Shown here: positions 906-29,159 of the stretch, one piece after another
How the letters are laid out: each line of letters begins with the position of its first letter
How positions within the stretch are numbered: the stretch's first letter is position 1
Assembly: GCA_038562455.1 (NCBI GenBank)
Contig: JBCFBD010000007.1
Coordinates: 405 to 64,404 of the forward strand
DNA length: 64,000 bases
Reading direction: 5' to 3'
DNA from: Anaerolineaceae bacterium
Lineage (GTDB): Bacteria; Chloroflexota; Anaerolineae; Anaerolineales; Anaerolineaceae
Made by a program: the position numbers and the translations under genes
Notes under the pieces: generated by a model
What the model was told of the DNA's origin: nothing
Databases searched by the model: none
The model's input: only the letters and a program-made list of their open reading frames with translations

Positions 906-1886
906 CTATAGACCTAGAATTTTGGTAATTTCAGCAGATAATACTCCGGGATCCTCGATCGAAAAGATCTTTTTACGGCTCTCCACAGTTGTGAGCAACC
1001 CATTCAGATAGCGAGAAAGGTGCTTTCTGAACAAGACGGTGCCAACGCGTGGGGAATAAAGCGCAACCATACCAGCTAAATGTCTGCTAATAACCGCAAA
1101 CAACTCCTGGTGGGAAATCTCCTCGCGACTCTGACCGCCAAACACCCATGGGTTGCCAATCGCAGCGCGGCCAATCATCACCGCGTCACAACCGGTGTGC
1201 GCAATCATCTGCAGCGCCTGTTGTTTGGAGTTAACGTCGCCATTACCGATGACTGGGATGGTTACCAGTGCTTTAACTTCGGCGATCGCATCCCAATCTG
1301 CATTGCCCTGGTACTGCTGACTGCGTGTCTTGGCGTGCACTGTGATCGCACTGATACCGCAATCATCAAGAATGCGGGCAATTTCGAGGTAATTGCGAGT
1401 TTTTTCGTCCCAACCCAGCCTGATCTTGGCGGTGATTGGGAGCGGTAAGTTATTGACCATGTCACAAGCGATTTGATGCACTTTTTGTGGATGCTTCAAT
1501 AGCCCAGCGCCGGCTCCACGGTTGCTGACGTTACGGGCTGAGCAACCCATGTTTATATCCACCAGGTCAGGCTTGTACTGTGCGAGTTTAATGGATGCCT
1601 CGAGCAAACGTGCGGGGTCGTCATCAAAGACCTGGTAGCTGAAAGGGCGCTCGTGGGCGGAGAACTCAGTTTTGTACTTGAGATGCGGATGTCCGTACTT
1701 CACATCAATCCCGTTGACAAATTCTGAAGTACTCAAAGCAGAGCCAAATTCGCGGCAAAGACTGCGGAAAGGGGAATCAGTGTAGCCATCCATGGGCGCG
1801 AGCAGAAGTCGGCCATGGATCTGCACGGGGCCAATGTAGAAGGGGGAAGCGAGAAAATCTGTTGTTTGCATGGTATATCCAGTCAA
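906..1886 (-). CDS. dus: tRNA-dihydrouridine synthase (Dus family)
   Basis: 326 aa. LLAPMDGYTDSPFR, DINMGCS and a TIM-barrel flavoenzyme pattern are typical of Dus. Confidence 0.85.
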   Translation of the reverse strand: MTGYTMQTTDFLASPFYIGPVQIHGRLLLAPMDGYTDSPFRSLCREFGSALSTSEFVNGIDVKYGHPHLKYKTEFSAHERPFSYQVFDDDPARLLEASIKLAQYKPDLVDINMGCSARNVSNRGAGAGLLKHPQKVHQIACDMVNNLPLPITAKIRLGWDEKTRNYLEIARILDDCGISAITVHAKTRSQQYQGNADWDAIAEVKALVTIPVIGNGDVNSKQQALQMIAHTGCDAVMIGRAAIGNPWVFGGQSREEISHQELFAVISRHLAGMVALYSPRVGTVLFRKHLSRYLNGLLTTVESRKKIFSIEDPGVLSAEITKILGL

Positions 1887-1963
1887 TTATAAGGGACAAT
1901 CAACAACTATTTTGAAATTGCGTGTAGGCAACTAATCACACCAACAAAAAAGACAAGAAATAC

Positions 1964-1991
1964 TTGACAATGAACAAATGTTCTATATAAT
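1964..1991 (+). promoter_or_regulatory. Near-consensus sigma-70-type promoter (TTGACA-16 nt-TATAAT) ending 6 nt before the ATG at 1998
   Basis: TTGACA at 1964-1969 and TATAAT at 1986-1991. The ATG at 1998 lies where a TSS is expected, so the mRNA may be leaderless. Confidence 0.5.
1972..1983. promoter_or_regulatory. LexA-type SOS (Cheo) box GAACAAATGTTC inside the promoter spacer
   Basis: Perfect palindromic GAAC-N4-GTTC. The extended sequence TGAACAAATGTTCT is close to the Gram-positive consensus CGAACN4GTTCG. Confidence 0.5.
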
Positions 1992-1997
1992 AAGATT

Positions 1998-2588
1998 ATG
2001 AAACATACATACATGGAAGGAAATGGTTTAACAAGTCCAGAAGTCGGGCTCCCGCGCGGACTGCTGGTGATCTTCGGCGAACACAGCGGGGCGGCGCGGA
2101 TGCTCGACCTGACTGCCGGGCTTTCCTTACGCGGGCCGCTATACCTGCTGGATTGCGGCAACCGCAGCAACATGTACCGGGTGGCGCGCACGCTGCGAAC
2201 ATTGACCGATGACCCGGTGGCGGTGATGCGCAATATCCGTCTTTCGCGTGCGTTTACCTGCTACCAGGTGGTCGCGCTGCTGGAAAAGGTGGCTGCCAGT
2301 CCTTCCGCACCGGTGCTGGTGCTGGATCTGCTCGACACGTTCATGGACGAAAGCGTGCAACTGCGTGAAAGCAGCCTGCTCTTTGATTCCACGCTGCAGC
2401 ACTTGCTGACAGTGGGGCAGACCGTACCCGTGGTGGTGAGCGCAAAGCCGCTCCTGACGCTTTCTGCGCCGCGCTTCGGGCTACTGGAGCAATTGAAAGC
2501 CGCCGCGGCTGAGGTGTGGGAGGAGACCGCTCTGTATCCTGCGCGTCCAGCGGCAAGCACGCAATTGCCTTTACTCCCTGATTATTGA
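1998..2588 (+). CDS. Hypothetical protein, possibly RecA-superfamily (ImuA/SulA-like) with a degenerate Walker A
   Basis: 196 aa. GLPRGLLVIFGEHSGAAR sits where G-P-G-x-ITEI-G-GxGK[ST] is found in RecA-like cores. A hydrophobic strand plus acidic residues (VLVLDLLDTFMDE) resembles Walker B. The gene is GC-rich and is followed by GAGGAGG, the RBS of the next gene. Confidence 0.4.
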   Translation: MKHTYMEGNGLTSPEVGLPRGLLVIFGEHSGAARMLDLTAGLSLRGPLYLLDCGNRSNMYRVARTLRTLTDDPVAVMRNIRLSRAFTCYQVVALLEKVAASPSAPVLVLDLLDTFMDESVQLRESSLLFDSTLQHLLTVGQTVPVVVSAKPLLTLSAPRFGLLEQLKAAAAEVWEETALYPARPAASTQLPLLPDY

Positions 2589-5300
2589 GGAGGTGCTATG
2601 GGTAGAACGATTCTTTCAGCGACGCAAACCTGGATGGAAGAGGATAAAGCCCTGCGGCGGTTTGTGCGCGCACTGCGCAAAGCTGACCAGGACCTGGTGC
2701 AGGAACTACTGGCGCTTTCACGGCGGCATATCGCCGAGGCTTCATACGCAAGCAACCTTTACCCCATGGATATTTACCTGATGTCGATGCTGCTGGAGAC
2801 CTTTCGCAAAGTGAAACAGCTCGAACGACAGTTGGAGGCGCTCGGGGTACAGCCGGAAGAACACACCACGCTTGATCCGGAGTTCCCGGAACTTCCTACG
2901 CTGGTGGAACTGATTTCACCGGCGCGGGAGGGGGCGCGCGTTGGGGAGCAGAAGCCTCCCGCGGGCGTGGAGTACGTGGACCTGCAGGACGGCGCCTGAC
3001 GATGACTGCGCGGTGGCGGGGTTGGCTGCTCGACCTCTACGAGGATGAAGCAGATGGACTACGAATGTGGTTCATCACCGAGGAGGATACGCGGGTATGC
3101 CTGCACCAGCCGCTAGAGGTGGTTTTCTACGCCAGTGGTGATCCTGCCCAGTTGCGTTCTCTATGGGTGACGCTGCGGCGCTACCCGGAAGTGCTTTCAC
3201 TGGCACGCGAGATGCGTCGCGATGCCTTCATGCCCGAGCCGGTCACCGTGCTCAAGGTGACGGTCGACAGCCCGCGCCATCAGTCGCGCATTTTCAGAGA
3301 GATCATGCAGCGTTACCCGCGCCTGGTCTATTATGACGCCGATCTTTCTTCCAATATCCGGCACGCGGCGCGGTATGGCACTTTCCCGATGGCTTTCTGC
3401 GATGTCGAACATGACGAGGCGGGGCGTATTCTCTCTTTGCAGGTGTTGAACTCGCGCTGGGACCTGGCGGCGGTGCACCCGGTTTTCCGCATACTTACCC
3501 TGGAACCGGATTGCGATCCGGGGCGGGGTGAACCCTCTGCGCTCAAGCTGCAGTTTGGTCGGCGCAAACAGACGCTCATGCTGCAACCGGCTGGCGAGTT
3601 GATCCGCAAATTGAATCAGGTACTGCAACAGGAGGACCCCGACTTTGTGTTGACCAGTTGGGGAGACACCTGGCTAATCCCCACACTGCTGGAACTGGCA
3701 AAACAGAGCGGCGAAAAATTGCTTTTCAACCGGGACGAGCAGCGGGAGGTCGCCTGGCAAAAGGAACTGTCGTATTTTTCCTACGGGCAGATCGTTTTTC
3801 GTCCGGAGGAGGCGCATTTGTTCGGCCGCTGCCACATCGACCAGAAAAGCGCGATGATGTGGCGGGATTACGGGCTGGATGGTGTGCTGGAATCCGCGCG
3901 GGTGACGACGCTGCCGATCGAAAATGCTGCCCGCGTGTCGCCGGGTTCCGGCATTTCCGCGATGCAGATGCTCACCGCCCTCGAGCTGGGCATTCTCGTG
4001 CCGTGGCATAAACAGCAGGTGGAAGTCTTCAAAGATGGCATCGACCTCATTCAACGCGACCGCGGCGGATTGATCTACCAGCCGCTCGTCGGGCTGCACG
4101 CCAACATCGCCCAGGTTGATTTCATCTCCATGTACCCGGCGATCATCATCAAGGGCAACATATCGCCTGAAGTGCCGCTACCGAATGGGATCATCCCTGC
4201 CAGTGAGGAATTGGGTGTGGTTCCCCTGACGCTCAAGCCGCTGTACGAGAAGCGTGTGGCGCTAAAACTACGCGGCGCGGGCAAAGCCAGGGATGACCGT
4301 CTGCTGCGGCGTGACAGCGCGCGTGCTTCTGCGCTGAAATGGCTGCTGGTGGTGTGCTTCGGTTTCCTGGGATACAAGAATGCCCGCTTTGGGCGCATCG
4401 AGGCGCACGAGGCGGTGACCAACGGCGGGCGCGAGGTATTGCTGCGGGCAAAAGAGGTGGCAGAATCAATGGGGTGCGAAGTGTTGCACATGTACGTGGA
4501 TGCCCTGTGGCTCAAGCGCCCGGGTTGTACCCGCAAAGAGGATTTTCAGGATGTGCTGGACGAGATCTCGCTGCAAACCGGTCTGGGCGTATCTCTGGAC
4601 GGCATCTACCGGTGGGTGGCTTTTTTGCCTTCGCGCATGGACGAGCGGGTGCCGGTTGCGAACCGCTATTTCGGGGTCTTCCAGGATGGGTCGATGAAGG
4701 TACGCGGTATCGAGGCCCGGCGGCGGGATACCCCCCCATGGATCGCCGAGACGCAGATAAAAATGCTTGAGCGGCTGAGCCGTGCCGGCAGCGTAAAGGA
4801 CCTGCCGGGCAGCCTGGAGATGGCTTTCGAGATCTTCCAGAAAGCATTGGCAGACCTACGGGCAGGCAAGGTGCCGTTGGAAAAACTGGTGGTGACCTCC
4901 CGGGTCAGCCATGAGTTGGAGGCCTATCGCTCGCCGACCCCTGCCGCGCGCGCCGCACTGCAGATTCATGCACAAACCGGTAAGCAGGCACGCCCCGGGC
5001 AGAAAGTGCGCTTTCTCTACACGCGGGGCGAGAGCGATGTGCGCGCGTGGGAATTACCGGGAAAAATCAACCCGAACGATGTAGACAGAGTAAAATATAC
5101 CGAGTTACTCGCGCGCGCAGCCGCCAGCGTGTTTCATCCATTCGGCATTCGTGATGCGCAATTGAAGGAATGGGCGCACACACAATCACTGGCGTTGGAA
5201 TTTGGGTTTGAGCAGGAGGTGCCGCATGTGCGGAAGGTTCGCCATCATGTTCGATCCGGAAGAGCTGGGGCAGAAGTTGGAGTTGGGGGATCTGCCACCT
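2035..5300. other. Compositional (GC-rich) island relative to the flanks
   Basis: Hand counts of G+C per 60 nt. Inside the island: 2041-2100 = 43, 3481-3540 = 37, 4321-4380 = 33. In the flanks: 1921-1980 = 21, 5881-5940 = 25. Confidence 0.6.
2598..2999 (+). CDS. Hypothetical small helical protein
   Basis: 133 aa with a GAGGAGG RBS 6 nt upstream. The stop lies 2 nt before the polB-like ATG. No family recognised. Confidence 0.55.
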   Translation: MGRTILSATQTWMEEDKALRRFVRALRKADQDLVQELLALSRRHIAEASYASNLYPMDIYLMSMLLETFRKVKQLERQLEALGVQPEEHTTLDPEFPELPTLVELISPAREGARVGEQKPPAGVEYVDLQDGA

Positions 5301-5302
5301 GA
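3002..5302 (+). CDS. Family-B DNA polymerase homolog with degenerate exonuclease and polymerase motifs
   Basis: 766 aa. Motif A is DFISMYPAII (about 4118). Motif B-like is KWLLVVCFGFLGY (4337). The motif C position reads YVDALW (4493-4510). ANRY (4658) sits where KKRY is expected. GIEARRRD and an archaeal/Pol II-like N-terminus (GWLLDLY) are also present. Confidence 0.8.
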   Translation: MTARWRGWLLDLYEDEADGLRMWFITEEDTRVCLHQPLEVVFYASGDPAQLRSLWVTLRRYPEVLSLAREMRRDAFMPEPVTVLKVTVDSPRHQSRIFREIMQRYPRLVYYDADLSSNIRHAARYGTFPMAFCDVEHDEAGRILSLQVLNSRWDLAAVHPVFRILTLEPDCDPGRGEPSALKLQFGRRKQTLMLQPAGELIRKLNQVLQQEDPDFVLTSWGDTWLIPTLLELAKQSGEKLLFNRDEQREVAWQKELSYFSYGQIVFRPEEAHLFGRCHIDQKSAMMWRDYGLDGVLESARVTTLPIENAARVSPGSGISAMQMLTALELGILVPWHKQQVEVFKDGIDLIQRDRGGLIYQPLVGLHANIAQVDFISMYPAIIIKGNISPEVPLPNGIIPASEELGVVPLTLKPLYEKRVALKLRGAGKARDDRLLRRDSARASALKWLLVVCFGFLGYKNARFGRIEAHEAVTNGGREVLLRAKEVAESMGCEVLHMYVDALWLKRPGCTRKEDFQDVLDEISLQTGLGVSLDGIYRWVAFLPSRMDERVPVANRYFGVFQDGSMKVRGIEARRRDTPPWIAETQIKMLERLSRAGSVKDLPGSLEMAFEIFQKALADLRAGKVPLEKLVVTSRVSHELEAYRSPTPAARAALQIHAQTGKQARPGQKVRFLYTRGESDVRAWELPGKINPNDVDRVKYTELLARAAASVFHPFGIRDAQLKEWAHTQSLALEFGFEQEVPHVRKVRHHVRSGRAGAEVGVGGSAT

Positions 5303-5840
5303 CCTGAAATCGAACAGCAATATCTCTCCCGGAACGAATATTCCTGTCGTGTTGGATGCCGTAGACCGAAATGTGAAGATGTTTCGCTGGGGGTTGATCC
5401 CCGGCTGGGCGAAGGATGTTTCTGTGGGATACAAGATGATCAACGCGCGTGCAGAAACAATTGATGAAAAGCCGTCATTTCGCGTAGCTTTTCAACGCCG
5501 GCGCTGCCTGATTCCGGCAGATGGATTTTACGAGTGGAAAATCGAGGATGGGCATAAATATCCTTATTTGTTCACTCTTAAAGATAGAAAGCCATTCACG
5601 TTTGCAGGGTTGTGGGAAACCTGGCGCAGCCAGGAGGGCGGCGAGATCAACAGTTGCACAATCATTACGACGGAGCCGAATAGCCTGGTCGCGCAATACC
5701 ATAACCGTATGCCAGTAATCTTGGGGTACGAGAACCGTTGGCGCTGGCTGGAAGAAAGAACAAAGGAAGAACTCAAGGCGATGCTGATTCCTTGTCAGAG
5801 CGGGATCATGGATATTCCTCAACAGGTCAATCGTCTATAA
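5226..5840 (+). CDS. SOS response-associated peptidase (SRAP/YedK family, abasic-site processing protein)
   Basis: Start set at MCGRF (Cys2 is the catalytic residue in this family). NARAE, GFYEW and YHNRMPVIL are present. It overlaps the polB-like 3' end by 77 nt in another frame. Confidence 0.85.
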   Translation: MCGRFAIMFDPEELGQKLELGDLPPDLKSNSNISPGTNIPVVLDAVDRNVKMFRWGLIPGWAKDVSVGYKMINARAETIDEKPSFRVAFQRRRCLIPADGFYEWKIEDGHKYPYLFTLKDRKPFTFAGLWETWRSQEGGEINSCTIITTEPNSLVAQYHNRMPVILGYENRWRWLEERTKEELKAMLIPCQSGIMDIPQQVNRL

Positions 5841-5896
5841 TTTGATCGATAAGGCTATAATTGATCATATACCAATAAGAAAAAAGAGGGCATACT

Positions 5897-7564
5897 GTGG
5901 AACGTCACGAGATCATCAAAGACTTGCAAGAAAAACCTGAAATGGATATATTGATTGTTGGCGGGGGAATTAACGGGGCAGGAGCTTTTCTTGACATGGC
6001 GGTCAATGGGTTAAGGGTCTTATTGATCGACCGGGGAGATTTCTGCTCGGGCGCTTCTGCTACATCTTCTCACATGGCACACGGCGGGATTCGATACCTG
6101 GAAAACGGCGAATTCCGGTTGGTGCGAGAAGCTGTGGCGGAAAGAAATCGCATGATCCGTAATGCGCCGCACATGGTAAAACCCCTGCCGACTGTCATTC
6201 CCATGTTTAAACTTTTTTCAGGGTTCTTGAATGCTCCTTTGAAATTTCTGAATTTGCTCGACAAACCCTCAGAACGAGGTGCGGCGGTTATTAAGATCGG
6301 ACTGATCTTATACGATTCGTTTACTGGTAAAAATCGAACTGTTCCTGCGCACCAATTCTTTGGAAAAAAGGAAACTTTTAAACGTTACCCCCGACTAAAC
6401 AAGGATGTACGATACACTGCTGAATACTATGATGGATTAATGCTTTCACCTGAGCGTTTGAATACTGAAATCATCCTGGATGCTGAAAAAGCAGGAGAAG
6501 CTGCTATGGCGTTAAATTATGCCTCGTTTGACAGCGTGGACGGGGATACGGTACTACTGAATGACTACGTGGGGGAGCAGATACTGAGGGTAAAACCTAA
6601 GATGATCGTCAATGCAGCTGGTCCTTGGATCGATGATGTGAACAATCGAATGGGCAAGCAAACTAATTACATCGGCGGCACCAAGGGCTCACACATCATC
6701 GTTAAAAATCCTGAATTAAAGAAAGCTATCGGCAATAAGGAATTTTTCTTCGAGAACAAGGACGGTCGGATCGTACTGTTGCTGCCATTCTTCGATAAAG
6801 TAATCATTGGAACCTCAGATCTACCTATTGATGATCCAGATGGGGCCGTTTGTACACCTGAAGAAGAGGCGTATTTCATCGACCTGGTCAAGCGGGTGTT
6901 TCCGGAGATCCCGATCCTGCCTGAGCAGATCGTATTCAGGTTCTCCGGTGTTCGACCACTGGAGTATCAGCATGCCAAAACTACCGGACAGATCACAAGG
7001 GATCATACGATAAAAGAAGACCTTTTGGGCAACATTCCGGTATTAAACCTGATTGGCGGCAAATGGACGAGCTATCGCGCTTTTGGAGAACAGACAGGTG
7101 ATAAAGCGCTTGATTATTTAAGTCAACACCGCAAAGGGACTACTGAAGAGATGAAGATCGGCGGTGGAAGGGATTACCCCCCAACTGACCTGGCAATTCA
7201 AGCATACCTGGATGTTTTTTCGACCAAAGGGTTTGAAAAAGGCATTGTTGAAACCCTTTTCGAACGATACGGATCAACAATCAACGAAATAATTGGCACG
7301 GGAACCATTGAATTTCTTAAATCCAACCCGCTTATTACTGTAAATGAGATTAATTTTCTGGCGCGCACTGAAAAGGTAGTGCACCTAGACGACCTTTTAC
7401 TCAGGCGTACATCATTGGGATGGCTCGGATTGATTGACGAAGATTGTTTGCGGGAAATTTCCATGCTAGTTGGTGCAGTGCTAGGATGGAGCACGGATAA
7501 GAAACAGAACGAGATTGAGAGGGTCAAAGCGTTATTCCTGAAGAATCACGGCGTAACCATTTAG
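5897..7564 (+). CDS. glpD: FAD-dependent glycerol-3-phosphate dehydrogenase
   Basis: 555 aa with a GTG start after AAGAGGG. Shows the dinucleotide fold IVGGGINGAG and SSHMAHGGIRYLE. Confidence 0.85.
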   Translation: MERHEIIKDLQEKPEMDILIVGGGINGAGAFLDMAVNGLRVLLIDRGDFCSGASATSSHMAHGGIRYLENGEFRLVREAVAERNRMIRNAPHMVKPLPTVIPMFKLFSGFLNAPLKFLNLLDKPSERGAAVIKIGLILYDSFTGKNRTVPAHQFFGKKETFKRYPRLNKDVRYTAEYYDGLMLSPERLNTEIILDAEKAGEAAMALNYASFDSVDGDTVLLNDYVGEQILRVKPKMIVNAAGPWIDDVNNRMGKQTNYIGGTKGSHIIVKNPELKKAIGNKEFFFENKDGRIVLLLPFFDKVIIGTSDLPIDDPDGAVCTPEEEAYFIDLVKRVFPEIPILPEQIVFRFSGVRPLEYQHAKTTGQITRDHTIKEDLLGNIPVLNLIGGKWTSYRAFGEQTGDKALDYLSQHRKGTTEEMKIGGGRDYPPTDLAIQAYLDVFSTKGFEKGIVETLFERYGSTINEIIGTGTIEFLKSNPLITVNEINFLARTEKVVHLDDLLLRRTSLGWLGLIDEDCLREISMLVGAVLGWSTDKKQNEIERVKALFLKNHGVTI

Positions 7565-7583
7565 AGTTTGTGCTTCAAAATCA

Positions 7584-7616
7584 AAAACCATCATCAAGCT
7601 GATGATGGTTTTCTTG
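7584..7616 (+). terminator. Rho-independent terminator after glpD
   Basis: Perfect hairpin CCATCATCA/TGATGATGG (7588-7608) followed by TTTTCTTGTTCT. Confidence 0.6.
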
Positions 7617-7619
7617 TTC

Positions 7620-7695
7620 TGGCGGGAGCGACGGGGTTCGAACCCGCGATCTCGGCCTTGACAGGGCCGCATGTTAGCCACTACACCACGCCCCC
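7620..7695 (-). tRNA. tRNA-Asp (anticodon GTC)
   Basis: Reverse complement: acceptor GGGGGCG/CGCTCCC, anticodon loop CTGTCAA, T-arm GCGGG-TTCGAAC-CCCGT. The 3' CCA is encoded. Confidence 0.9.
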
Positions 7696-7706
7696 GAACA
7701 GGCAAT

Positions 7707-7735
7707 AGTTTATCACATGGTTTTTCTAACGTCAA
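7707..7735 (-). promoter_or_regulatory. Putative tRNA-Asp promoter (TTGACG-17 nt-TAAACT)
   Basis: On the minus strand, TTGACG is the complement of 7730-7735 and TAAACT the complement of 7707-7712. The tRNA 5' end lies 11 nt downstream of the -10. Confidence 0.45.
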
Positions 7736-7866
7736 GTTCCATGGGCTAACAGTTCCATGGGCTAACAGTTCCATGGGCTAACAGTTCCATGGGCTAACAG
7801 TTTGGGCTAACAGTTCCATAGTAACTGTTCCTTAATAACAGTTCCACAATAACTGTCGTAACAACA
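7736..7866. repeat. Tandem array: 4 perfect copies of the 16-bp unit GTTCCATGGGCTAACA plus 5 decayed 12-14-bp units
   Basis: Perfect units at 7736, 7752, 7768 and 7784. Decayed units are GTTTGGGCTAACA, GTTCCATAGTAACT, GTTCCTTAATAACA, GTTCCACAATAACT and GTCGTAACAACA. Confidence 0.9.
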
Positions 7867-7928
7867 CCAGCCCAGAGAATGACATTCCACAAGGTCCAGT
7901 TCTGCAATAGCCGGAATGACCAAATTTG

Positions 7929-7957
7929 CAAAAAAAGCTGCTCAATATAGAGCAGCT
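7929..7957 (-). terminator. Rho-independent terminator after ndk
   Basis: Hairpin AGCTGCTC-6 nt-GAGCAGCT (7936-7957), followed on the minus strand by a T7 run. Confidence 0.6.
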
Positions 7958-7998
7958 GCAAATATTTTTCCATAAGGATCATGGATATGGGGGTCTGT

Positions 7999-8472
7999 TC
8001 AGTTTAATCCGGTGAACCAGTTTTCACCGTCTCTTCCCCACTCAACCAGTTCAGCTTCTGTGAACCAAAGCGCAATTTCCCGGGATGCGCTTTCTAAAGA
8101 ATCTGAGGCGTGAGTGAGATTGCGGCTCATCATGATCGAAAAGTCATGCCTGATGCTGCCAGGATCAGCTTCAAGCGGGTTGGTTGCGCCCATGGTTTGC
8201 CGCACAGCCTTAACCGCATGTGGACCCTGCCAGACCATTGCCATGACCGGCGCGCTCTTAATATACTTGATCAATCCTTCATAAAAAGTTTTTCCAACAT
8301 GAGCTTTATAATGCTCGCGTGCCAATTGCTCATTTACCAAGAGGAATTTCGCGGCGACCAATTGAAGTCCGCGTGACTCCAGGCGATTGATGATTGTGCC
8401 AACCAGATTTCTTTGCACGCCGTCGGGTTTAATGAGTACGAGAGTCTGCTCCAAAGTCTGCTCCGTTATCAA
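7999..8472 (-). CDS. ndk: Nucleoside-diphosphate kinase
   Basis: 157 aa. TLVLIKPDGVQRNLVG, NxxHASD and the overall Ndk signature are present. Confidence 0.95.
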   Translation of the reverse strand: MITEQTLEQTLVLIKPDGVQRNLVGTIINRLESRGLQLVAAKFLLVNEQLAREHYKAHVGKTFYEGLIKYIKSAPVMAMVWQGPHAVKAVRQTMGATNPLEADPGSIRHDFSIMMSRNLTHASDSLESASREIALWFTEAELVEWGRDGENWFTGLN

Positions 8473-11090
8473 ATAAAGATATTCTTTTCAGCTTCGTGAT
8501 AGGCATCCAACGCTTCGTCGAAACTAGCTTTTCGACTCAACAAATCCCCCAAGTCCTGCCATAATTCAAAGTTTTCTGGGTGGTTCTGCAATGTGGCATC
8601 CAACTCCGCAATAATTTGATCGGATACCTCGTCCTGAGAAGACAGCTTCGAGATTTCCTGCGTGAACGAAGAAAAATCACCCGCTTGGAGAAGGCCAACG
8701 ACCCGCTCAATATCTGACTTACCAATCCCACCATCATCACTTTCAACAGAAGCCGGTTCAATTAAAGAACCATCACCAGCGCCAAACATTGAAGACAAAC
8801 GATCGTCAAGTGCAACTTCTTCTATGGGCAACTCATTGTCAATCTCTGAAACCAATTCCATGGTTTCTTCAATCTCGGTAAATTCCACTAAACTTTCGAG
8901 AGATATTTCTTCATTTGCTTTTGGAATTTCAGTTGTTTTAATCTCAGTAGTTGGAATGTCAGTTTTTTCGGAATCCACTTCTTCCAGCCAGGTTTCAAGT
9001 TCCGCAGTCACTTCTTCGGAAATCGCTCCAGCCCCTTCTGGTTCATCAGGCAGGTCAGTGATCAATTCCTCAATGAACTCCTCGGAATCAGTAACCGATG
9101 TGGGAAGCTCCGCATCAGCCTCAGACCCTACCGTGGACGTGGCACTTATTATCGGTGTGGATTCTGCCGGACCAGCCAATATGTTCTTGACCCATGCAGG
9201 TAAGGAGGAAGGCGTGCTAGTTTTAATCGGCTCAGTCTTGATGTGCTCCGGTTCCTGGTGCTCCACTACCTCGATCTCATGTTCCAAAAACTCTGATTCA
9301 GTAGGCGCTACATCCAAAGGTTCCGATTCGTTGGACTCAGACACGGTTTGGTCTGGTGCTTCTATGGCAGAAGGTTGATCAGAAATTACTTTGTTGTCCA
9401 AATTCAAGTCGACCTCGAAATCTTCAAGGTCACCCGGTTTCGGTTGGGTTGCCTCTTCTGGCGCACTTTCTTCCTCTGCAATGGTATCCAGTTCACCGAT
9501 CAAGTCGCTGGTTTCGATTTCTGCAAGGAAATCAGAGATTTCGAATTCTACAGATCCCGGTACTGAGACAGACTCCTGAGGCTCATTAGTTAAAGAAACC
9601 GCTGGCTCAATATCCATTTCAAAGGTTTCAGGAACCTCAAGGTCTTTCAACCAGTCCGGAAGATTGGGCACGGGTTCTTCACTGTTTACGGTGGGAAGTT
9701 CGAAAGATTCTCTTTCAACAAAATTTTCAATCGGGCTTTCTGGCGCGTTTTCTGTTCCATCACTGGAAATCGGGAGGTCAGCAAAAGGCTCCGACTCATC
9801 TGATAATAACTCTGCGAGCATATCGGGTGGAAGGGGTGGAATGTCTGATTCAGGAATACTTTCGTCTTCGGATGAAGCAAATAATTGCGGCGAATCCATG
9901 CCATCTGTTGGTATCGATTGCAGCCAATCCGGCAGAGACTCTGCCGGCTGGGCAGGCGCTTCTACCTCATCTGATATTTCCGAAATTGGCAGTTCGTTGT
10001 ATGATTCCTGTGTAGTCGCGGGGTTTTCATCCTCGTTTGCTCTTACCCAACCAGCTTTAGCAATCCATTCTGGTAATTCAGACTCATGCACATTATTGGA
10101 TGAAATATCTTTAGTTGATTCATATTCTGGGGTAGCTACTTCATCCTCAATGAAAGGCGAAGGAGGTTCCACCTGCGAGAGTAAACCGCCATCACCTAAA
10201 TCTTCAAAGGGTTCAGGTTGGACCTGGCCAATTACTGTATCTTCTGCATCGTCATGCCAGGGGATACCGATTTGATCTGCCCATTCAGGCGAACGGGAAT
10301 AATCTTCCTCTTGGGAAAAGTACTCGGTTTTTTCGAGCGTCACCTTTTCAGCTGGAACATCGCCTACATTCTCACTCGCTATTGAAATGAAACCATAATA
10401 CGGATCCAGTTCACTAAGTCTCTGTAAGAAAACTGAGGGATGACCTTCAGAATCTGACACAGATGAGGATAACTCGAACATGATACGGTTGGCTTCAAAA
10501 CAATACGGGTGGTCTTGCAAAATATCATTGCAGATCTCAGCGGCAGAGTTTTCGGCATTTGTTATGGTATACATTCGGGCGAGCAACAGCTTCAAATCGA
10601 TGCGTGCCGGATCAGCTTGAAGAGCTGAGAGGGATTCAGCGATCGCTTGTTGATAAAGCTCGCCCTTGGCATACATTCTGATCAATGCACCCCGCGTGAG
10701 TCTAATCTTAGAAGGGAGGGCACCATCACGTCGGCTAATGAGGCGGCGAAACTCTTCCTGAATGGCAGCGTTGGAAGGCTGGGTTTCAAAGGCTTGTTCC
10801 ATGTGCCAAATGGCTTTATCAAGTTCGCGGTTTTCTTCGTGCACGATACTAAGACCTGCATGCGCCACAAAATCGTCTGGAAAGACTGAAATAACTTTGG
10901 TAAAAACTTCGGAAGCATCGGCATAGCGTTTTTCTTCAAGTAAAGCTTGTCCAAGTTGCTGATAGGTTTTGATGGATTTAGGAAATGATGAAAGTATATG
11001 CGTACAGTGGACAATCGCTTCAGACATGGCGTTCTTTTCCAACAGGTCATCTATGAACAAGTGGTAATCGCGAAGCGTAATATTACTCAT
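8469..11090 (-). CDS. TPR-repeat protein with a roughly 500-aa acidic low-complexity region
   Basis: TPR-like helices at the N-terminus and at the extreme C-terminus. Start moved to MSNITL (ATG at 11090) because GGAGG lies 8 nt upstream; the track start is 11108. Confidence 0.7.
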   Translation of the reverse strand: MSNITLRDYHLFIDDLLEKNAMSEAIVHCTHILSSFPKSIKTYQQLGQALLEEKRYADASEVFTKVISVFPDDFVAHAGLSIVHEENRELDKAIWHMEQAFETQPSNAAIQEEFRRLISRRDGALPSKIRLTRGALIRMYAKGELYQQAIAESLSALQADPARIDLKLLLARMYTITNAENSAAEICNDILQDHPYCFEANRIMFELSSSVSDSEGHPSVFLQRLSELDPYYGFISIASENVGDVPAEKVTLEKTEYFSQEEDYSRSPEWADQIGIPWHDDAEDTVIGQVQPEPFEDLGDGGLLSQVEPPSPFIEDEVATPEYESTKDISSNNVHESELPEWIAKAGWVRANEDENPATTQESYNELPISEISDEVEAPAQPAESLPDWLQSIPTDGMDSPQLFASSEDESIPESDIPPLPPDMLAELLSDESEPFADLPISSDGTENAPESPIENFVERESFELPTVNSEEPVPNLPDWLKDLEVPETFEMDIEPAVSLTNEPQESVSVPGSVEFEISDFLAEIETSDLIGELDTIAEEESAPEEATQPKPGDLEDFEVDLNLDNKVISDQPSAIEAPDQTVSESNESEPLDVAPTESEFLEHEIEVVEHQEPEHIKTEPIKTSTPSSLPAWVKNILAGPAESTPIISATSTVGSEADAELPTSVTDSEEFIEELITDLPDEPEGAGAISEEVTAELETWLEEVDSEKTDIPTTEIKTTEIPKANEEISLESLVEFTEIEETMELVSEIDNELPIEEVALDDRLSSMFGAGDGSLIEPASVESDDGGIGKSDIERVVGLLQAGDFSSFTQEISKLSSQDEVSDQIIAELDATLQNHPENFELWQDLGDLLSRKASFDEALDAYHEAEKNIFI

Positions 11091-11139
11091 CAGGCAATTC
11101 CTCCGCATTAATTATTTTCAAAATAATATTATACATGAG

Positions 11140-11176
11140 TTGAGAAAAGAACAAAAAGGCATGGGGATCCATGCCT
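11140..11176 (-). terminator. Rho-independent terminator after rpoD
   Basis: Hairpin GGCATGG-GGAT-CCATGCC (11158-11175), followed on the minus strand by TTTTTGTTCTTTT. Confidence 0.6.
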
Positions 11177-11182
11177 TGAACC

Positions 11183-12388
11183 TTATTCACCTAGATAATC
11201 GCGAAGCTTGCGTCGGATCGAAGGGTGACGCAGCCTGCTCAAGGCTTGCGCTTCGATCTGTCTGACGCGCTCACGGGTCACGCCCATTTTTCGGCCAACT
11301 TCTTCAAGCGTGTAAGCCTGCCCGTCGAGCAAACCATAACGGAGTTGCAGGATCCTGACTTCACGCGGTGGTAGGCCGTTTAAAACCTCTTCGAGATGCT
11401 CACGTAGCAGGTTGTAGGTCGCGGAATCGTCAGGAGGAGGAGCTTCATCATCCTCGATGAAATCGCCCAGCACGGAATCTTCTTCGTCATCAGTAGGTGT
11501 CTCGAGCGAAAGTGGTCGGCGCGCAACCTGGATCATGTTTTCGACTTTCTTTGGAGGTACATCGAGAGCAATGGCCAGTTCCTCAACAGTTGGTTCGCGA
11601 CCCAGACGCTGGGTTAATTGATGCTGAACACGTAATAGCTTGTTGATTTGGTCACCCATGTGAACAGGGACCCGAATCGTTCTACCCTGGTCTGCAATGG
11701 CGCGTGTGACAGCCTGGCGGATCCACCAGGTAGCGTAAGTACTGAACTTGTGACCGCGCCGGTAATCAAACTTTTTAGTGGCGCGTATCAGACCGATATT
11801 GCCTTCCTGGATCAGGTCGAGGAACGGAACACCGCGCCCCATGTATTTCTTCGCCACACTGATTACCAGACGCGAATTGGCTGTGATCAGGTGTTCCCGC
11901 GCAGCCCATCCATCTTCAATAAGTTTACGTAATTCGAGGCGGCGTTTAATGTTGACATTGCCTTTAGCCAATTCCTCGCGTGCCATGCGACCGCGCTCAA
12001 TACGTTGGGCAAGCTCCACTTCTTCCTCGGCGTTGAGTAAAGGGACTCGACTGACTTCTTTTAAATATAGCCCGATCGTGTCATCGGTATCAATGTTTTC
12101 GAGGTCATCAGTAGCTGCCTTGACCTCAGTGCTTTCTTCATCGTGGGTCGTTAATTCTTCGTCTGAAGGCTCTTCGTGGATGATCTCATCTTCAGTATAA
12201 GGGATTCCTGCGCTCATCAGAGCAGCGAACGTTTCCTCAAGCTGTTCGACATCCTGTTCCGCCTCTGGGAAGAACTGCAGGATGTCATCAATGGTAATAT
12301 ATGATTTTTGACGACCAAGCTCAATCAACCTGGCTATCGCAGGGTAATCTTCATCTTCATCGTCAATTGGTATGATAGGTTTATCCAA
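11183..12388 (-). CDS. rpoD: Primary RNA polymerase sigma factor (sigma-70 family, group 1)
   Basis: 401 aa. Region 2 is [36 protein letters not shown]. Regions 3 and 4 are present, along with an acidic N-terminal region 1. Confidence 0.95.
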
Positions 12389-29086: not shown

Positions 29087-29159
29087 CGCCCTCGGTGGGA
29101 GTCGAACCCACAACCATCGGATTAGAAGTCCGGTGCTCTGTCCATTGAGCTACGAGGGC
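29087..29159 (-). tRNA. tRNA-Arg (anticodon TCT)
   Basis: Reverse complement: acceptor GCCCTCG/CGAGGGC, anticodon loop CTTCTAA, T-arm GTGGG-TTCGACT-CCCAC. No CCA is encoded. Confidence 0.9.

Follow-up and report, generated by a model that had tools for sequence, protein, structure and literature searches.

The window considered here is a stretch of 64,000 nucleotides from an Anaerolineaceae bacterium (assembly GCA_038562455.1, contig JBCFBD010000007.1, positions 405 to 64,404). It carries, on the forward strand, a compact cassette of three genes, the last of which codes for a family-B DNA polymerase. This polymerase gene is an uninterrupted open reading frame of 766 amino acids (3002..5302). 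It is preceded by a gene for PPB2 (2598..2999), a small, presumably helical subunit of 133 amino acids (arCOG07300, Pfam DUF8156), and by a gene for iRadA (1998..2588), an inactivated RadA/Rad51 homologue of 196 amino acids. A sigma-70-type promoter lies upstream of the operon (1964..1991) and a gene for a SRAP protein follows it (5226..5840), both on the same strand. The reading frame 3002..5302 is likely to encode the catalytic subunit of an SOS-induced bacterial PolB2 (group G2) mutasome, with a decayed exonuclease domain and an apparently intact polymerase core. The locus belongs, as an unremarkable member, to a family that the literature already describes (PMC4104785, PMC7544198, PMC11791011, PMC12926913).

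The assignment to family B, made in the initial annotation, is borne out by the match to the Pfam domain DNA_pol_B (1.7e-24) and by a search of the PDB, in which the closest solved relatives are archaeal PolBs (5mdn, 1.9e-33). The profile of the protein family matches the PolB of P. abyssi at 2e-108, with 367 bits for Pyrococcus PolB, versus 3e-34 and 121 bits for E. coli Pol II, in an alignment that is confined to the polymerase half. Pol II, on which the protein had initially been aligned by hand, was thus an unsuitable reference. The AlphaFold2 model obtained with 50 homologues displays a complete PolB fold, with a mean predicted local distance difference test score (pLDDT) of 83.2 and a predicted template modelling score (pTM) of 0.78. 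Its template modelling scores against archaeal PolB structures are of 0.6-0.7, and the top Foldseek match is again 5mdn (3e-38). An identical protein is present in public metagenome data (P0001), and the family comprises 715 clusters at 50% identity with E < 1e-30. All conservation counts given for the polymerase refer to 111 full-length representatives (30-56% identity). The related loci come from a profile scan of metagenomes, which recovered 80 loci; a single-protein scan of genome contigs recovered one locus (L001), the peptide patterns being too specific.

The motif D(K/R)GG is present as D353-R354-G-G in the loop upstream of motif A, where D353 is conserved in all 111 representatives and a Lys or Arg at position 354 in 100 of them. 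The D(K/R) motif is specific to the archaeal B2 and bacterial G2 polymerases (PMC7544198), and a motif C of the form HxxxD, also found here, is a signature of PolB2 (PMC8764526, PMC11791011). A Thermoplasmatota archaeon has a homologue (30% identity, E 2.5e-91) that is encoded in an equivalent operon, and the bacterial group G2 is reported to be nested within archaeal PolB2 (PMC7544198, PMC11791011). The PolB2 lineage would have arisen in archaea and reached bacteria as the three-gene operon iRadA-PPB2-PolB2.

Both the HMMER pairwise alignments and the profile alignments place the segment L-H496-M-Y498-V-D500-A-L-W, without gaps, on the motif C consensus L-Y-x-D-T-D-S/G-L-F/Y. The first Asp of DTD corresponds to Tyr498 and the second Asp is kept as D500, in the motif H496-M-Y-V-D500 (4487..4501). 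The initial annotation had read the string YVDALW (4493-4510) with Leu at the second Asp, which is wrong by two residues. D500 is invariant (111/111) and H496 is conserved in 103 representatives; position 498 is occupied across the family by Ile, Leu, Tyr, Asn or Val and never by Asp. The second Asp of DTD is the metal ligand, the first pointing away from the active centre (PMC8764526). Motif A (VDFISMYPAII, 4115-4147) retains its catalytic Asp, D373 of the sequence DFISMYP (4118..4120; 111/111), together with the steric-gate residue Tyr378 (102/111). Judged from these alignments, the catalytic pair of two carboxylates, D373 and D500, is intact. Motif B (KWLLVVCFG, 4337-4363) keeps its Lys (K446, 110/111) and contains V450 and F453 in place of Asn and Tyr, and the KKRY motif is replaced by A-N-R-Y (4658-4669). 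The retention of the Asp of motif A and the changes in motif B and KKRY had been noticed in the initial annotation and stand; the changes are traits of the whole family, in which KKRY becomes x-N-R-Y. Several Arg and Lys of the fingers and thumb are also near-invariant.

The geometry of the active site was judged from the positions of secondary structures in the AlphaFold2 model. D500 is located at the turn of the beta-hairpin 493-498/501-505, and D373 closes the strand 364-374, directly before the helix 377-385. This predicted placement is the classical motif A/C geometry. In RB69-type enzymes, the Asn and Tyr of motif B, together with the KKRY residues, serve to sense the minor groove at the nascent base pair and at that of the primer terminus. 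The loss of such residues would fit a tolerance of distorted termini, and the Tyr at the first-Asp position might tune the use of metal. The purified Dpo2 of S. islandicus, which bears HxxxD, is an active, exonuclease-free polymerase and a translesion extender, and dpo2 is alone among the polymerase genes of this archaeon in being essential for damage-induced mutagenesis (PMC8764526).

Among the members of the family, the proteins P0177, P0195-P0197, P0203, P0236, P0245 and P0246 are 1200-1300 amino acids long, and their match with the query is split at about residue 453, within motif B. These long members probably carry inteins.

In the exonuclease domain, the Exo II segment T-S-W220-G-D-T-W-L225-I-P (SWGDTWLIP, 3656-3682) aligns pairwise with T-Y-N-G-D-N/S-F-D-F-P of the Pyrococcus enzymes. 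W220 and L225 stand at the positions of the Asn and Asp, presumably N210 and D215 in the Pyrococcus numbering, and N...D is found at 220/225 in just one of the 111 representatives. For Exo I, the pairwise alignment with 5mdn places F-D-I-E on L167-E-P-D170, in the string ILTLEPD (3491-3511), and the family profile places D-I-E on L146-Q-V148. The register of the profile fits the strand count of the AlphaFold2 model better. Positions 146 and 148 are not both acidic in any representative, and D-x-E at 168/170 occurs in one only (1/111); to judge from these counts, the carboxylates of Exo I are not conserved whichever register holds. The stretch that should bear Exo III, following GRCHIDQ (3824-3844), is about 45 residues shorter than in the Deep Vent polymerase (query 247-299 versus target 237-334), and the gap between GRxHxD and the next helix is of 12-24 residues in all 111 representatives. 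By these alignments, the exonuclease domain is decayed, the DEDD set being absent and the Exo III segment deleted. The losses at the three Exo motifs had been recognized in the initial annotation, with the motif strings at the positions given here. It had also proposed to look by alignment for two carboxylates in the palm and a DEDD set in the exonuclease domain: the palm pair D373/D500 is retained and no DEDD set is found.

The first gene of the operon, iRadA, codes for the core of a RadA/Rad51 protein without the N-terminal domain and without the ATPase residues. A profile of 45 homologues retrieves the RadA of P. furiosus (1.1e-5), then Rad51 and DMC1, and hhalign gives a probability of 97% with the Rad51-family protein of the archaeal PolB2 operon. 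At the site of the Walker A motif GxxGxGKT, the window protein has GEHSGAAR, without the Lys-Thr pair; the family alignment reads GxHAxxxxML at this site, and GKT/S is absent there across the iRadA family alignment. The C-terminus (...STQLPLLPDY) contains QLPLL, a motif of the beta-clamp type. The pattern Q-x(1,2)-[LF]-x(0,1)-[LFW] is found in 36 of 60 homologues, and L[FWL] is present near the C-terminus in 53 of these 60. PPB2 starts with MGRTILSATQ. The sequence MGRT-x-x-S-x-T is invariant in 69 homologues, and the next residue is Gln in 62 of them. BLASTP aligns PPB2 (4e-8) with the DUF8156 protein of the archaeal operon, both proteins starting with MGRT, and the homologues in loci L002-L005 carry a precomputed PF26485 assignment. 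Our Pfam scan gave no match for iRadA or PPB2, the copy scanned being apparently without PF26485/DUF8156.

The three genes are separated by 9 nucleotides (iRadA-PPB2) and 2 nucleotides (PPB2-PolB2). Among the 55 related loci with enough upstream DNA, PPB2 is present in 54 and iRadA in 53, and the order iRadA-PPB2-PolB2 is observed in 51. This order is the sole one reported in bacteria, and the neighbourhood agrees point by point with the PolB2 mutasome operon of earlier work (PMC4104785, PMC11791011). The Thermoplasmatota operon is composed successively of genes for a Rad51-family protein, a DUF8156 protein and a PolB, one further gene and a SRAP gene. The polymerase itself contains a putative interface loop, E341-x-F343-K344-x-G346...D353-R354-G-G (4022..4069), which joins an FxxA-type motif, resembling that of Rad51 oligomerisation, to the D(K/R) motif. 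E341, F343, K344 and Ala or Gly at position 346 are conserved, in the pattern E-x-F-K-[TS/D]-[AG]...D-[KR]-G-G, and the loop has a low pLDDT in the model of the monomer. Published models assign this loop to the binding of iRadA and PPB2 (PMC11791011). The Pfam scan of 101 flanking open reading frames from the related loci detected no consistent neighbour outside the three-gene core. A small protein with a GerE/LuxR-type helix-turn-helix adjoins the cassette in 9 of these 101 frames (for example L019 3446-3871 and L024 3454-3864), and could serve the lineages concerned as an alternative local regulator; the window lacks it.

The promoter TTGACA-16 nt-TATAAT (1964..1991) agrees with the sigma-70 consensus at 12 of 12 positions and is the only such site within 1800-6000. 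Its spacer contains the candidate LexA operator GAACAAATGTTC (1972..1983, forward strand), of the Cheo/Gram-positive type, which starts 26 nucleotides before the ATG of iRadA. We take the palindrome GAACN4GTTC to be the LexA site of the phylum (Gram-positive/Dehalococcoides-type box). GAACAAATGTTC is the sole GAACN4GTTC of the window, and a single occurrence in 64 kb is close to the chance expectation. Of 62 related loci, 25 contain an exact box, which in about 20 of them starts exactly 26 nucleotides before the start codon of iRadA, for a background of 0.012 per 200 nucleotides. The box is thus taken as regulatory because it is conserved at a fixed position across loci, not because of its presence in the window, and we infer that LexA binds at GAACAAATGTTC. 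The gene lexA is not among the 25 commonest families in the 101 flanking open reading frames of the related loci.

Downstream of the operon, the SRAP gene (5226..5840) encodes an abasic-site sensor of the YedK/HMCES type that starts with MCGRF (Pfam SRAP, 2.5e-68). Its 5' end overlaps the 3' end of polB2 out of frame over 77 nucleotides (5226-5302), and the sequence AGGAGG is located 7 nucleotides before its ATG. Of ten related loci with a linked SRAP, eight likewise show an overlap of 77 nucleotides, and the remaining two show overlaps of 83 and 95 nucleotides. The tail of PolB2 encoded in the overlap (residues 743-766) is disordered in the model. SRAP is adjacent in just 7 of 63 related loci, which leaves it outside the core of the system.

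Housekeeping genes flank the cassette (dus, a glpD-like gene, ndk, rpoD and the gene of an H+-PPase), and the same synteny is found in a metagenome-assembled genome of Anaerolinea at 77% identity (L001, cassette 5002-8307). The core genes (1998-5302) have a guanine plus cytosine (GC) content of about 60%, and of about 69-70% at third codon positions, versus 46-51% GC in the flanks; SRAP is at about 50%. This contrast between cassette and flanks holds in both genomes, and its persistence at 77% identity indicates that the composition of the cassette is not adapted to the host. It agrees with the horizontal origin that published work proposes. In locus L005 (59% identity), phage-like genes directly follow the cassette (7917-11991; Phage_min_cap2, P63C and an IS1595-type Zn ribbon), which hints that some copies of the cassette travel on or beside mobile elements. 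The window has three tRNA genes on the reverse strand (116-187, 7623-7695 and 29087-29159). None of them adjoins the cassette, and an integration site targeted to a tRNA gene is thus not apparent. Elsewhere, the reverse strand encodes a protein of 879 amino acids (8469-11108) with TPR repeats towards either end; between them lies a very long, acidic stretch of low complexity, in which Glu, Asp, Ser and Pro abound.

From these observations the following mechanism can be proposed. By way of the GAACAAATGTTC box, which is observed together with its conservation at a fixed position, LexA would repress the strong promoter, and the operon would be expressed upon DNA damage. According to the published AlphaFold models, PolB2 would then assemble with one iRadA and a PPB2 trimer: the FxxA-like loop of PolB2 would bind iRadA, and the MGRT arm of PPB2 would insert close to the D(K/R) motif. 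iRadA may tether the complex to the beta clamp by its C-terminal QLPLL. Two-metal catalysis would be carried out by D373 and D500 without proofreading. With the minor-groove-sensing residues also lost (Asn to Val and Tyr to Phe in motif B, KKRY to xNRY), the enzyme would most likely extend mismatched or lesion-paired primer termini, as measured for the Dpo2 of S. islandicus. SRAP, encoded downstream, would probably protect abasic sites as part of this response. We further put forward, tentatively and as a rather doubtful extension, that the locus is a LexA-repressed four-gene unit of an Anaerolineae-type lineage. SRAP would there be coupled to the polymerase both translationally and functionally, through the 77-nucleotide overlap with its internal Shine-Dalgarno sequence, and would mark and protect abasic sites that the clamp-tethered PolB2 extends past.

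The lead reading of the initial annotation was that of an inactivated paralogue, that is a catalytically dead PolB with no role other than that of a scaffold or a module for DNA binding, comparable to the C-terminal half of Pol epsilon. The replacement of the first Asp of DTD by Tyr498, the non-canonical motif B and KKRY and the dead exonuclease all agree with it, and PolB2 was long annotated as inactivated (PMC4104785), a view held until 2020. The reading is not supported, since it was built on a register of motif C that was two residues off. The two carboxylates that act as metal ligands do not vary across the family, and K446, Y378 and the Arg and Lys of the fingers and thumb are kept as well; in a dead enzyme such residues would not be expected to stay conserved. 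Moreover, Dpo2 of Sulfolobus is a robust polymerase with the same HxxxD (PMC8764526), and the primer-independent PolBs, likewise without the first Asp, are active (PMC7544198). We thus consider a dead enzyme very unlikely. The evidence favours the fallback of the initial annotation, a translesion enzyme that is atypical but active. An active polymerase without exonuclease could also work mainly in gap filling, or in the processing of abasic sites or DNA-protein crosslinks with a translationally linked SRAP. The conserved overlap of 77 nucleotides and the AGGAGG of SRAP itself speak for such a role, as do the SRAP gene that also follows the archaeal operon and the behaviour of Dpo2, which is accurate in copying undamaged DNA but poor at insertion opposite lesions (PMC8764526). 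However, the rarity of SRAP next to the cassette and the requirement of dpo2 for the mutagenesis that damage induces in S. islandicus (PMC8764526) make it unlikely as the main function.

Two other identities were examined and rejected. An accurate SOS polymerase orthologous to E. coli Pol II, with diverged motifs, would also be bacterial, SOS-linked and of family B. Yet the NCBIfam models of Pol II give 25-51 bits for cut-offs of 570-1435, the family profile clearly favours Pyrococcus PolB (2e-108 versus 3e-34), and Pol II works as one subunit, whose exonuclease is active (PMC11791011). As the Exo motifs and the first Asp of DTD are absent and the scores are below the NCBIfam cut-offs, we give this identity practically no credence. 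A replicative polymerase belonging to a prophage, casposon, pipolin or defence island would account for the compositionally foreign cassette and for the phage-like genes just downstream in L005. It is highly improbable with respect to the housekeeping flanks, whose synteny is shared at 77% identity, and to the loss of proofreading, which a replicative enzyme would be expected to keep. No integrase or Cas1 was detected in the Pfam scan of the genes adjoining the cassette, nor among the 25 commonest families in the 101 flanking open reading frames of the related loci. PADLOC reported no defence-system match, its sole match being to the polymerase part of a homing-endonuclease model.

The identification as catalytic subunit of a PolB2 mutasome remains the likely one, and several points weigh against it. 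The top NCBIfam match, NF004416, reaches 378 bits, below the model cut-off of 516. The window protein has a Tyr at the first-Asp position, where most members of the family have Ile or Leu. The literature searched contains no purified or genetically tested bacterial PolB2, and the activity is extrapolated from Sulfolobus enzymes that are no more than about 30% identical. The formation of the complex and the binding to the clamp and to LexA are deduced from motifs and published models, and the search for lexA in the window extended no further than the nearest genes.

The main value of this analysis is corrective: a polymerase that seemed dead by hand alignment is a standard member of PolB2/G2 with, as aligned, a two-carboxylate active site. 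The statement that a bacterial SOS-linked polymerase of this kind would be unusual is out of date, since the SOS linkage of bacterial PolB2 is already on record. Homologues linked to an inactivated RadA, to arCOG07300 (PPB2) and to lexA were described in 2008-2014 (PMC4104785), and later analyses dealt with them as group G2 (PMC7544198) and under the name of PolB2 mutasome (PMC11791011, PMC12926913). The locus is a clean candidate for first experimental work, with a perfect promoter, an embedded LexA-type box, an adjacent SRAP and three subunits that carry every predicted interface motif. If the four-gene unit were true, it would be the first bacterial setting where a family-B extender takes the role of Pol V/ImuABC.

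Compared with the known systems, the locus is closest to the PolB2/G2 polymerases and their iRadA-PPB2-PolB2 mutasome, with which it shares HxxxD, D(K/R)GG, an Exo I that is not conserved and a deleted Exo III (PMC7544198, PMC11791011, PMC12926913). Also common to both are the gene order, the MGRT arm of PPB2, the clamp-type motif at the C-terminus of iRadA, a nearby SRAP and the SOS link. The window differs in that its SOS link is an operator in the promoter and not a neighbouring lexA gene, in that Tyr occupies the first-Asp position in place of the usual Ile or Leu, and in that the 3' end of polB2 overlaps SRAP by 77 nucleotides; none of these differences is essential. The Dpo2 enzymes of S. 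islandicus and S. solfataricus likewise keep only the second Asp of motif C (IID in Dpo2, YVD in the window) after an invariant His (PMC8764526, PMC7390963). They have no Exo motifs and are encoded in an operon with iRadA and PPB2; their expression is damage-inducible, as that of the window operon would be. However, the exonuclease domain of Dpo2 is more decayed and the sequences are only distantly related. Dpo2 uses PCNA and a regulation of the Orc1-2/TFB3 type, whereas a beta clamp and LexA are predicted for the window. Dpo2 is the only biochemically characterised form.

The eukaryotic Pol zeta (Rev3-Rev7) is also a multi-subunit family-B polymerase with an inactivated exonuclease, and a damage-linked extender of distorted termini (PMC11791011). 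Its accessory subunits are unrelated and it keeps a canonical DTD; it is not an orthologue. E. coli Pol II shares with the window enzyme the condition of a bacterial SOS-induced family-B polymerase, but it is a single subunit with an active DEDD exonuclease and a canonical DTD, and is only distantly related. Finally, Pol V of E. coli (UmuD'2C-RecA) and ImuA-ImuB-DnaE2 are, like the putative PolB2 complex, SOS-regulated mutasomes in which a polymerase is combined with a protein of the RecA/Rad51 family and with a small accessory subunit. The catalytic subunits of these two systems are of the families Y or C, and the likeness is one of function, not of polymerase homology.

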